Assembly: GCA_051251855.1 (NCBI GenBank)
Contig: JBPOGI010000001.1
Coordinates: forward strand, 1,536,001-1,600,000
Length of the DNA: 64,000 bases
Origin: Roseibacillus sp.
Lineage (GTDB): Bacteria; Verrucomicrobiota; Verrucomicrobiia; Verrucomicrobiales; Akkermansiaceae
Direction: 5' to 3'
The notes under the pieces were generated by a model. The model saw only the letters and a program-made list of their open reading frames with translations. It made no database searches and was not told the DNA's origin. The translations under genes were made by a program, and so were the position numbers. Within the stretch, counting starts at the first letter, position 1; each line of letters starts with the position of its first letter. This document shows positions 46,406-48,864 of the stretch, piece by piece.

Positions 46406-47647
46406 CTATTCCCCATGCTGCACTCGACGTCGAATGAGGTCCAGCACCACTTGGCTAACCTGTTCCTTGAAAGACTTTCTACCACGTGGGTAACACCTCT
46501 TAAAGACCGCCACTTCCTTCCCCTTCTCGGCGATTCCGATGAAAACCGTTCCCACCGGCTTTTCATCGCTCCCTCCATCCGGTCCCGCAATCCCCGTCAC
46601 CGAGACCGCTAGATCCGCGCCACTCGCCGCCAAGGCTCCCGCCGCCATTTCGCTACATACCTCTTCGCTCACCGCTCCAAAGTTCGCCAACGAGTCCTCA
46701 CTGACTCCTAACATCTGCGCCTTTGCCTCATTCGCATAAGTCACAAAACCATGGGTCAACACCGCACTCGCTCCCGGCACATCCGTGAGTCGGCTGGCAA
46801 TCATTCCGCCCGTGCAGCTCTCTGCCGTGGCCAGCTTCAGCCCACGATTCGTCAACTCCCGAATAACCACCGTCTCCAAGTTAGCGCCATCATCGCTCAC
46901 ATAGAATTTCTCAAAAGCCTTCTCAGCCAACGCTCGTCCCGCCCCCACCGCTTCAGAACCACCAATGAGACGTAAGTCCAACTCCCCCAAACGCGCACAG
47001 TAGCCAAATTCCAGTCCCTCGATCGCCTGCAGCTCATCATCGAGTCCTTCCGCAAACGAGCTTTCGCCAATTCCCACAAATTTTAACTCAATCGCCTCCC
47101 CCGCATCCTCAATCCCCGCCAACGCCTTCAGACGCGGCGCCACTTCAGCTTGAAACATCGGCTGAAGCTCTCTCGGCGGCCCGGGCAGCAAAAAGACCGC
47201 ACACGCCGAAACCTTACCCAAGCGCGGCGGAACATAGGTCCCTGGTGCCGTTCCATTGGGGTTCACCAAGACATCGGAACCCACTGGAACCATCGCTTGC
47301 TTCAAATTCGCCTCCGGAAAATGACCATAACCTCTCTTCTCGAAATACGCCTTCATGGTCCGAACAGCCTCCTCGTCCTGAATCAGCTCCACGCCCAAGA
47401 CTTCCCCCGTCGCCTCCCGTGTCACGTCATCGCTCGTAGGCCCCAGCCCTCCCGTCACAATCAGAGCATCGCATCGCAACAACGACTCCCGCATCGTCTC
47501 CAGAATCGCCTCTCCGTCTGGAACCGTCGTCTGACGCTGAACCCGCAAGCCCATTTTGAGCAACTCCTGCCCCATCCAATGCCCGTGAGTGTTTAACGTA
47601 GAGCCTAACAACAACTCAGTTCCCGTATTCAGAATTTCGATTCGCAC
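46406..47647 (-). CDS. cinA: CinA (MocF-like ADP-ribose pyrophosphatase domain fused to NMN deamidase PncC)
   Basis: GTELLLG, TGGLGPTSDDVT, PGPPRE, AESCTGG and TGIAGPDGG..KPVGTV motifs. Confidence 0.93.
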   Translation of the reverse strand: MRIEILNTGTELLLGSTLNTHGHWMGQELLKMGLRVQRQTTVPDGEAILETMRESLLRCDALIVTGGLGPTSDDVTREATGEVLGVELIQDEEAVRTMKAYFEKRGYGHFPEANLKQAMVPVGSDVLVNPNGTAPGTYVPPRLGKVSACAVFLLPGPPRELQPMFQAEVAPRLKALAGIEDAGEAIELKFVGIGESSFAEGLDDELQAIEGLEFGYCARLGELDLRLIGGSEAVGAGRALAEKAFEKFYVSDDGANLETVVIRELTNRGLKLATAESCTGGMIASRLTDVPGASAVLTHGFVTYANEAKAQMLGVSEDSLANFGAVSEEVCSEMAAGALAASGADLAVSVTGIAGPDGGSDEKPVGTVFIGIAEKGKEVAVFKRCYPRGRKSFKEQVSQVVLDLIRRRVQHGE

Positions 47648-47735: not shown

Positions 47736-48425
47736 ATGAAGCTTACAGCTCTTCTTACTCTGCTCAGCCTCGGCAGCCTTTCTGCCGAAGTGCGCGACTG
47801 GACCAGCGCAGACGGCACCCGCACCTTCAGTGGCGAAGTCACCGCCTACGAAAAGGCGACCAACACCGTCAAAGTCTCCGTCGATGGCCAAGAGGTCAGC
47901 TTCACCACCGACAAGCTTTCCGAAGAAGACCGCGAATACCTTTCCACTTGGACTAAAGAAGCAAAGCCCAAGATCGAAACCGACGTAGCCCAAACCATTC
48001 CTCTGCTCCTCAAATCGGATAAACTCCACCGCCTGAGCGAGAAAAAGTTCGTGGAGACCGAGCTCGAAAAGACGCCCCAATACTTCCTCCTCTACTACTC
48101 TGCCTCCTGGTGACCTCCCTGTGTCAAAAGCGCTCCACAGTTAGTGGAGAAATACAACAAGCTCATTGGTCCCAATCCACTCTTCGAAATGGTTCACATC
48201 TCGATGGACGAAGACGTCAAGTCCGCCACCCAGTGGGCCGCCAAAGAGTCTTTCCCTTGGCTCACCATTCTCCCCGAGGCCAAGCCCGAAGGCGTGATGA
48301 GCTACTACCCCGAAGAAGGCGTCCCCGAGTATATGCTCGTTGATACCGCTGGAAAAATTGTTCTCGTCGCTCCCGGAGAGCAAGTTTTCGAAAAAATGAC
48401 CGAGCTTGCCAACACCGCTAAATAA
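47736..48425 (+). CDS. Exported SHD1-domain/thioredoxin-like (nucleoredoxin/tryparedoxin type) protein with in-frame TGA; probable selenoprotein (UxxC)
   Basis: ORFs 47589-48113 and 48144-48425 are in the same frame. Read-through gives YYSASW-U-PPC, then FEMVHISMD, FPWL and GVPEYMLVD. N-terminal signal peptide plus 'RDWTSADG...KLSEEDREYL' SHD1. Confidence 0.8.
48133..48149 (+). promoter_or_regulatory. Candidate bacterial SECIS apical hairpin
   Basis: CTCCAC-AGTTA-GTGGAG perfect 6-bp stem; 25 nt separate the TGA (48111-48113) from the loop; G at loop position 2. Confidence 0.6.
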
Positions 48426-48432
48426 CCTCGGA

Positions 48433-48864
48433 TCAAGCCAAAACCTTCCCTCGCAAACTTGCTGGGGGAAGCTGGCACTCTTCGCTCGCTCCGAACCACT
48501 GTCGGCGATTGCGTGCAATCAGGTCGTAGAACCAGTCGCGAATCGACCTTGGAAAAAGACCTCCCACAACTGAAAGGAAGGCCCAAAACCCTCCCAACTC
48601 CCTCAACAGGGACAGCGCCCCACTGCTTTTAAAGGTCACCTCCTTCCTTTCTCGATCCCAATAGACAAAAGTCTCCGCCCCCTCCCCAGCCTCGGGCAAG
48701 CCTAACTCCTCCCGATACTGCGACGCAAACTCGCTCTCAAGGGCCGCGAACCATATCTCCCCCCGCCGGTCCCTCCTGTGTGTCCACTGAACCGCCGCAG
48801 AACAGAGCAAACACCCCCCGTCAAAAAACACAATCTTACGCGCCTGCTCCATCTTCCGAAACAT
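48433..48864 (-). CDS. DCC1/DUF393 family thiol-disulfide oxidoreductase
   Basis: FFDGGCLLC (DxxCxxC) and RDWFYDLIARNRRQWFG..C motifs; start probably 48864 or 48852, not 49020. Confidence 0.88.
   Translation of the reverse strand: MFRKMEQARKIVFFDGGCLLCSAAVQWTHRRDRRGEIWFAALESEFASQYREELGLPEAGEGAETFVYWDRERKEVTFKSSGALSLLRELGGFWAFLSVVGGLFPRSIRDWFYDLIARNRRQWFGASEECQLPPASLRGKVLA

Follow-up and report, generated by a model that had tools for sequence, protein, structure and literature searches.

The gene described here lies in the window, i.e., the whole 64,000-nt stretch of Roseibacillus sp. DNA that was analysed. Its frame runs from an ATG at 47736 through 125 residues to an in-frame TGA, and continues for another 103 codons to a TAA at 48423-48425, giving 229 amino acids when the TGA is read through. 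The TGA (48111-48113, codon 126) is part of TGG TGA CCT CCC TGT (48108-48122), in the protein context YYSASW-U-PPC. An earlier note on this DNA had placed the TGA, as codon 126, at the first Cys of a SASWCPPC-type motif, with the frame open for 103 codons beyond it and a total of 229 residues; re-reading of 48108-48122 and translation of the frame both agree. The features of the locus, with the basis of each assignment in parentheses, are the following:

47736..48425, plus strand: whole gene, 229 codons and TAA, with one in-frame TGA read through (frame translation; homologues start at the equivalent Met)
47736..47786, plus strand: predicted cleavable signal peptide, residues 1-17, with MK, a hydrophobic core and small residues (sequence; pattern in homologues; low pLDDT over residues 1-14)
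47787..47960, plus strand: SHD1-like domain, residues about 18-75 (family profile; model alignment to 2hbp)
47985..48422, plus strand: tryparedoxin/nucleoredoxin-type thioredoxin domain, residues about 84-229 (Pfam Thioredoxin_8; tryparedoxin PDB and Foldseek matches)
48111..48113, plus strand: UGA, codon 126, putative selenocysteine (Sec) at the first position of W-U-P-P-C (TGA/Cys column in 102 distinct copies; sel genes in the genome)
48120..48122, plus strand: Cys129, second, putatively resolving, residue of UxxC (invariant in a 29-sequence alignment; Cys in 63/63 TGA copies)
48133..48149, plus strand: candidate SECIS hairpin with a 6-bp stem and the 5-nt loop AGUUA (conservation, codon constraint and published bacterial constraints)
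48324..48326, plus strand: Pro197 of V-P-E-Y (invariant in the 29-sequence alignment; aligns with I-P-T of tryparedoxin)

An upstream in-frame GTG at 47589 was dropped as a possible start because the homologues begin at the MK, and no promoter or terminator of note was seen on the plus strand around the gene. In RefSeq the genes of three cultured relatives, Roseibacillus persicicus, R. ishigakijimensis, and Persicirhabdus sediminis, are recorded as hypothetical proteins of 128-133 aa that end at the TGA (WP_189570370.1, WP_200391158.1, and WP_200309920.1). In a word-based protein search, nine of the 11 matches (our own sequence included) were N-terminal halves ending at SASW. A comparison of 59 loci found no widely shared gene and no conserved gene neighbourhood that would point to a redox partner, and the eight ORFs of at least 110 aa around the gene had no partner in the other loci except for one sulfatase-like ORF. 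The flanking cinA-like and DCC1-like genes were rejected as parts of a system, since this neighbourhood is not shared across loci. The convergent neighbour on the minus strand (48433-48843) encodes a DCC1-like thiol-disulfide oxidoreductase, and its adjacency is not conserved in the loci compared.

The letter at 48113 is corroborated by two matching contigs. One, from a possible source run (depth about 4300), matches the TGA site with zero differing letters; the other, a 161-nt contig of another study, also matches without a differing letter, its TGA lying only 22 nt from the contig end. Two other runs (X6 and X8) have no coverage of the codon, and the 10 runs listed include no RNA run with the sequence. 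The host genome further contains a paralogue (C11:42056-42760) that is 47% identical and has the same TGA and an identical 17-nt hairpin. With the contigs in agreement and the TGA and hairpin shared by the paralogue, the TGA is not an assembly error. In our tree the paralogue is the copy nearest to the genus-wide orthologues, and the copy in the window is more divergent.

In the AlphaFold2 model (mean pLDDT 87), a disordered N-terminus precedes a small beta domain, which a linker joins to the thioredoxin domain. A signal-peptide-like N-terminus was found by a simple rule in 59 of the 65 homologues scored, with seven more left out because they have no nearby Met, and judging from its N-terminus the chain is predicted, with high probability, to be exported and its signal peptide to be cut. 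The thioredoxin domain exceeds the cut-off of Pfam Thioredoxin_8 (PF13905; 41.1 bits, cut-off 27), which matches 29/29 aligned members, and tryparedoxin is the best match both among PDB sequences (E 2.6e-10) and in Foldseek, in line with the nucleoredoxin/tryparedoxin-type motif recognised earlier. TlpA/ResA/CcmG-like chains tie with tryparedoxins in a wide fold search, and the protein is also over the cut-offs for PF00085 and PF13098 and just under that for PF08534. The NCBIfam equivalogs of that group stay far from their cut-offs (ResA 28.1 vs 170, DsbE 26.3 vs 123, TlpA 14.4 vs 230 bits). None of the eight NCBIfam families that match at E <= 0.1 is a selenoprotein-specific model, and none reaches its cut-off; the same library recognised VPGUxxT in another gene of the host genome. 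Pro197 occupies what we take to be the place of the cis-proline of the thioredoxin fold. Compared with tryparedoxin (Crithidia TXN-I, 1ewx/1qk8) and nucleoredoxin, the protein has the same SASWCPPC region, but with Sec for the first Cys, predicted export, and an N-terminal SHD1 domain. Its likeness to tryparedoxin proper is in motif and fold only, and trypanothione as the reductant cannot be assumed.

The SHD1 domain of the earlier note was upheld by family profile and fold, but not by Pfam on the protein alone, where SHD1 (PF03983) scores 13.1 bits, below the cut-off of 23.7. Among the 29 aligned members, six match the Pfam model at E <= 0.01 (best 8.1e-6). A profile built from 52 homologous domains retrieves the SHD1 domain of yeast Sla1 (2hbp) first (E 2e-4), and the small domain, modelled by itself, superposes on 2hbp with Z 8.5 and an rmsd of 1.8 A over 55 residues, the next chain reaching Z 5.8; 2hbp ranked top in each of three comparisons. 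Despite this similarity in fold and profile, the domain differs from that of Sla1 in being bacterial, in lying behind a signal peptide, and in being one of 19 SHD1-like domains that occur in the host genome on unrelated catalytic partners. Seven of the 16 other SHD1-like ORFs scanned have Pfam matches (three hydrolases, a cytochrome c, GH115-C, DUF6288, and LRR). In several Sec copies there is no SHD1, only a signal or lipoprotein-like peptide, so that, given its many occurrences in the genome, SHD1 looks like a portable accessory module. As it is free of cysteine and is found on many proteins predicted to be secreted, SHD1 is likely an attachment or localisation module rather than a catalytic one.

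Across relatives, the column of codon 126 holds either TGA or Cys. Among 102 distinct copies, which combine those inspected from a search of 61 related genomes with 79 loci from named genome records, 63 have TGA and 39 have Cys (31 TGC, 8 TGT), with no other codon; the patterns used for the named records favoured Sec-type and Cys-type copies separately, and the ratio is therefore not a frequency. The TGA is shared by copies down to about 35% identity. In the named records it is found in Verrucomicrobiales, including Roseibacillus, Persicirhabdus, and Oceaniferula (one record bears no label beyond Bacterium), and copies from Akkermansia, Planctomycetota, and Lentisphaera have Cys; Cys homologues that share the full-length architecture are common. 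In a phylum-wide sample of 151 genomes, 16 match at E <= 1e-30; none outside the host genome has a TGA copy, and one match carries TAG. The Sec form was thus not found outside Verrucomicrobiales among the genomes searched. The frame continues for 97-110 codons past the TGA in 62/63 copies, the exception sitting at a contig end, and over 28 pairs of copies dN/dS is 0.10 after the TGA and 0.08 before it. Instead of the decay that the earlier note had asked about, these values indicate purifying selection on the 3' half.

Among the matches listed from the 61 genomes (33 weak matches lay outside them), internal-TGA copies occur in 18, comprising all nine of the genus and nine others. Both selA and selB are present in one set of 30/61 genomes, which include all 18 with a listed TGA copy, and the 31 genomes without them have no TGA copy among the matches listed; related genomes are not independent samples. 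Of the 35 copies inspected from this search, 23 have TGA and 12 Cys. Nine of the 12 genomes with an inspected Cys copy lack selA/selB and three have them (G019, G057, and G060), and in these three the hairpin is lost or missing. Sec is therefore dispensable for the family. A quick, midpoint-rooted tree was built from 98 thioredoxin domains, with the Sec column and the residues encoded by the hairpin masked and four rows omitted because they were short or contained N. It places all 61 Sec rows, together with 11 Cys rows, in one 72-row group (SH-aLRT 97), and at least four Sec/Cys changes are needed, two of them forced by strong branches. With that rooting, the tree fits a single gain of Sec with reversions to Cys. 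Variants of the motif among Sec copies include U-GPC, U-GGC, U-APC, and T-U-GPC. Tandem pairs of Sec copies were seen at six loci (L024, L027, L032, L033, L094, and L121), the second copy sometimes without SHD1.

The hairpin is formed by CTCCAC (48133-48138), the loop AGTTA (48139-48143), and GTGGAG (48144-48149). It had been described as lying 25 nt downstream of the UGA with G at loop position 2: the position of the G holds, and the distance is true of the loop, but the stem begins after 19 nt. In a 60-nt window around it the hairpin is not beyond chance on its own (z -0.55, 61/200 shuffles as good), and it stands out only when the window is trimmed to fit it (z -4.29); its folding energy is -7.9 to -9.2 kcal/mol. 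Published limits for bacterial SECIS elements, as given in PMC13188914, are a loop of 3-9 nt, a stem of 4-16 bp, a distance of 16-37 nt from the UGA, G in loop position 1-2, and an energy of at most -7.5 kcal/mol, and the hairpin, with its 5-nt loop, 6 bp, 25 nt, and energy, satisfies these constraints as listed there.

When copies are compared, the hairpin is far beyond chance. The loop pattern AG.T at +25 is present in 63/63 TGA copies vs 6/39 Cys copies, and at least five of the six stem pairs form in the same register in 63/63 distinct TGA copies vs 3/39 Cys copies (all six in 42/63 TGA copies, with one mismatch in the remaining 21/63). The hairpin proposed as a SECIS element thus turned out to be conserved among homologues as well as to lie within published limits. 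Its codons are frozen in the TGA copies: Gln is CAG in 62/62 (same-gene background 52%), Leu is TTR in 61/61 (12%), Val is GTG in 60/60 (22%), and GCT is used in 60/62 (19%). Over 28 pairs of copies that are 70-97% alike, the flanking sequence shows a synonymous difference of 0.58-0.59, and the hairpin one of 0.025. Two-sided changes occur in 4/6 stem pairs (0/500 shuffles) and derive from three sequences only, and in a control the partner slid by -1 scored higher on covariation (0.056 vs 0.045). RNAalifold on the 63 aligned hairpin regions gave zero consensus pairs, and the case for the hairpin therefore rests on the pair counts and the codon constraint, which point to its selection as RNA.

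The host genome (95% complete) encodes the machinery for Sec insertion, and all four genes that the earlier note proposed to look for lie over curated cut-offs: selA (455.6 bits, cut-off 267.9), selB (331.1 bits, cut-off 242.25), selD (375.9 bits, cut-off 125), which itself carries one TGA, and tRNA-Sec (selC; score 63.9, cut-off 47). They sit at four separate places, and the tRNA-Sec combines a UCA anticodon with a long variable arm and a G as its discriminator base. TGA otherwise serves as a normal stop codon in this genome, where it ends 387/1921 long coding ORFs and prfB is present; the coding score over the 20 codons past ordinary TGA stops averages -5.4, and past the TGA of codon 126 it is +7.7. 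Elsewhere in the genome, 10 tRNA genes are arrayed compactly at C10:114076-115599, and several of them duplicate anticodons found at other places.

The machinery, the TGA/Cys column, the hairpin, and the intact 3' half together support the reading that UGA is recoded in a gene for an exported-type selenoprotein, and the gene very likely encodes one selenoprotein of 229 residues. We propose, with considerable confidence in the explanation as a whole, that this is a tryparedoxin-type selenoprotein, predicted to be exported, and likely a periplasmic disulfide reductase. As in established bacterial Sec decoding, SelB on the hairpin would bring Sec-tRNA(Sec) to the UGA, and by this analogy SelB- and hairpin-dependent insertion of Sec is very likely. 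The exported chain, to judge from its N-terminus, would lose its signal peptide. Following thioredoxin chemistry, the selenolate of Sec126 would then attack a disulfide or oxidised cysteine of the substrate, and Cys129 would resolve the mixed bond; the motif makes this assignment of nucleophile and resolving residue quite probable.

The host DsbD may re-reduce the selenoprotein in the periplasm. The DsbD of this genome has three domains and all six cysteines; DsbD-N domains occur in 57/61 relatives, so the presence of DsbD is not specific. In Caulobacter crescentus, electrons pass from ScsB to TlpA and on to the envelope peroxiredoxin PprX (PMC3322552). As far as that path is described in PMC3322552, the host likewise encodes a DsbD-class membrane conduit, together with a thioredoxin-like protein and a PrxQ-type peroxiredoxin that are both predicted to be exported. 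Unlike in Caulobacter, both the thioredoxin and the peroxiredoxin of the host have Sec codons, the link between them is by analogy only, and the present protein scores far below the cut-offs of the TlpA/ResA/DsbE models. On genome content and this comparison we lean, by a small degree, towards re-reduction by DsbD. The PrxQ-type gene of the host is lipoprotein-like and has TGA at the peroxidatic position, and a TGA-bearing Sec peroxiredoxin occurs in 11/18 Sec-form genomes among the matches listed (E <= 1e-25); weak peroxiredoxin matches with TGA in G038 and G051 are outside this count. Candidate electron acceptors would include this lipoprotein-type Sec peroxiredoxin, an assignment by analogy that we regard as tentative and rather unlikely.

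A different role for the selenoprotein, as an oxidase or isomerase of exported proteins or as an enzyme recycled by a small thiol in the manner of tryparedoxin, seems doubtful, although it has some points in its favour. DsbB was not found in the 95%-complete host genome and another route to disulfide formation may exist, and oxidases, too, can have V-P at the cis-Pro loop. Tryparedoxins, the closest solved relatives, use a low-molecular-weight dithiol. Proteins with W-C-[PG]-P-C and the TlpA/ResA/CcmG-like proteins, on the other hand, are reductases in characterised cases, and both the motif type and the fold neighbours of the present protein argue against an oxidase or isomerase, as the complete DsbD argues against either alternative role. 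A periplasmic reductase fed by DsbD is, by analogy, most likely.

It is very improbable that the TGA is read as another amino acid, i.e., as Trp by code reassignment or as Cys by a suppressor tRNA. Reassignment of UGA to Trp has been reported for some Verrucomicrobiota (abstract of PMC13462651), and a weak 87-nt tRNA-like call with a CCA anticodon was obtained at C1:686953-687039, but this is poorly paired, has no CCA end, and is probably a false call. TGA is a working stop in the genome and prfB is present, the column is Cys in 39/39 non-TGA copies and never Trp, listed TGA copies occur only in genomes with selA/selB, and no tRNA with a UCA anticodon was found other than the one that scores as tRNA-Sec and has discriminator G. 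A nonsense pseudogene, a sequencing error, or two genes (one for a secreted SHD1 protein, the other for a small thioredoxin fragment) can practically be dismissed: gene callers and RefSeq do stop the protein at the TGA, and GTG 48144 could open an ORF of 93 codons, but the same TGA recurs in 63 distinct and partly distant copies, selection is purifying past it and synonymous changes are constrained in the hairpin, the downstream ORF would be without the active-site motif, full-length Cys homologues of the same architecture are common, and the contigs agree on the letter.

With the full machinery, recoding of UGA through SelB is standard and textbook, and the surprise for a selenium specialist is therefore modest. 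UxxC proteins with a thioredoxin fold are the commonest known type of selenoprotein (PMC13188914, PMC2398784). Known families include Trx (PF00085), thiol:disulfide interchange protein (PF13098), thiol-disulfide isomerase-like (cd02966), and the redoxin family (PF08534) (Table 1, PMC13188914), through which the families of Haft and Tolstoy (2025) are also covered, as well as a "Trx-like 1" UxxC family and other Trx-like UxxC families and fusions in the GOS survey (PMC2398784). Thiol-disulfide isomerase-like thioredoxin candidates in a planctomycete are listed in PMC4807772. The present protein shares with these Sec at the first position of CxxC, the Trx fold, and SelB/SECIS decoding, and differs in its best match, Thioredoxin_8, and in its SHD1 domain and signal peptide. 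The available text of PMC13188914, a 2026 catalogue of 119 families, mentions none of tryparedoxin, nucleoredoxin, SHD1, or Verrucomicrobia, and the main text of the GOS survey (PMC2398784) mentions none of tryparedoxin, nucleoredoxin, or Verrucomicrobia. A search of the accessible literature gave no description of a Sec family combining SHD1 with a tryparedoxin-type domain, which BSepDB may hold, and NCBIfam has no model for it. As the subfamily is set apart from the families in the available part of the catalogue by names only, the catalogue could file it under one of them. On these sources, it is very likely a member of the known UxxC thioredoxin class with standard decoding, and an unlisted variant in both architecture and sequence.

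A heuristic scan of the host genome yielded at least 18 candidate selenoprotein genes, 13/18 with a signal-like peptide by eye. They are the gene at 47736..48425, its paralogue, SelD, an FdhA-like protein (motif only), the PrxQ-type protein, a VPGUxxT type 2 protein adjoining selA, a WAxxUGC-like protein, a WGG-U-GGC redoxin, MsrA, ArsC, a lipoprotein thioredoxin, a deiodinase-like protein, a double-TGA protein, a Trx-SHD1 fusion, MiaB, and three FG-GAP genes. The gene for the tRNA methylthiotransferase MiaB (C11:191993, minus strand; TIGR01574 over cut-off) has TGA at the first Cys of TYG-C-QMN, followed by a hairpin, and the TGA is present in 12/59 genomes with a match, all 12 of which have selA/selB. 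Sec MiaB is absent from the 119-family table in the available text of PMC13188914, and a search of the accessible literature gave no report of it. Three neighbouring large FG-GAP + ASPIC/UnbV genes (C6:415249-426857) each have one TGA, in DL-U-SVYWR, and a hairpin; one TGA occurs in 68/68 listed matches from 13/61 genomes, all 13 with selA/selB, with up to 14 copies per genome among the matches listed. FG-GAP/UnbV-type candidates of the same description appear in Table S9 of PMC4807772, and are absent from the 119-family table as available.

SHD1-like domains recur at two other candidate loci. One (C7:209450-210106, minus strand) has a signal peptide, a TT-U-GPC domain, and a C-terminal SHD1-like domain, i.e., the reverse order, and no Pfam or NCBIfam match. 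In the other (C11:155881, minus strand), an ORF with a signal peptide and SHD1-like domain ends at a TGA in GGG-x-GGG, with 45 open codons and a small hairpin beyond; if this candidate is true, 4/19 SHD1-like ORFs of the host genome would be selenoproteins. The double-TGA protein (C6:711740-712336), small and with a signal peptide but without a Pfam or NCBIfam match, has two in-frame TGAs with a similar hairpin after each. At C1:1073661 (minus strand), a frame of 463 codons has a TGA within Gly/Gln-rich sequence; a hairpin is present, and coding scores are high to either side of the TGA. This frame has no family match and no redox motif.

A more far-reaching reading, which we put forward as speculative and improbable, would make this the first Sec version of the tryparedoxin/nucleoredoxin branch, the result of a single gain in marine Verrucomicrobiales, positioned in the envelope by SHD1, and acting as the middle link of a periplasmic selenium relay within a largely exported selenoproteome that is uncatalogued. 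If true, the relay would lead from DsbD to the Sec-tryparedoxin-like protein, and from there to the Sec-peroxiredoxin and other exported selenoproteins. The finding adds an unlisted subfamily to the inventory of bacterial selenoproteins and corrects a systematic annotation error, as the RefSeq genes are cut at the TGA. Cultured strains and natural Sec/Cys pairs, with Cys forms in Akkermansia, offer a ready test of the benefit of selenium to an exported thioredoxin, and the Sec/SHD1 family gives a handle on the role of bacterial SHD1 domains. More striking than the single gene is the wider, mostly exported selenoproteome to which it belongs.
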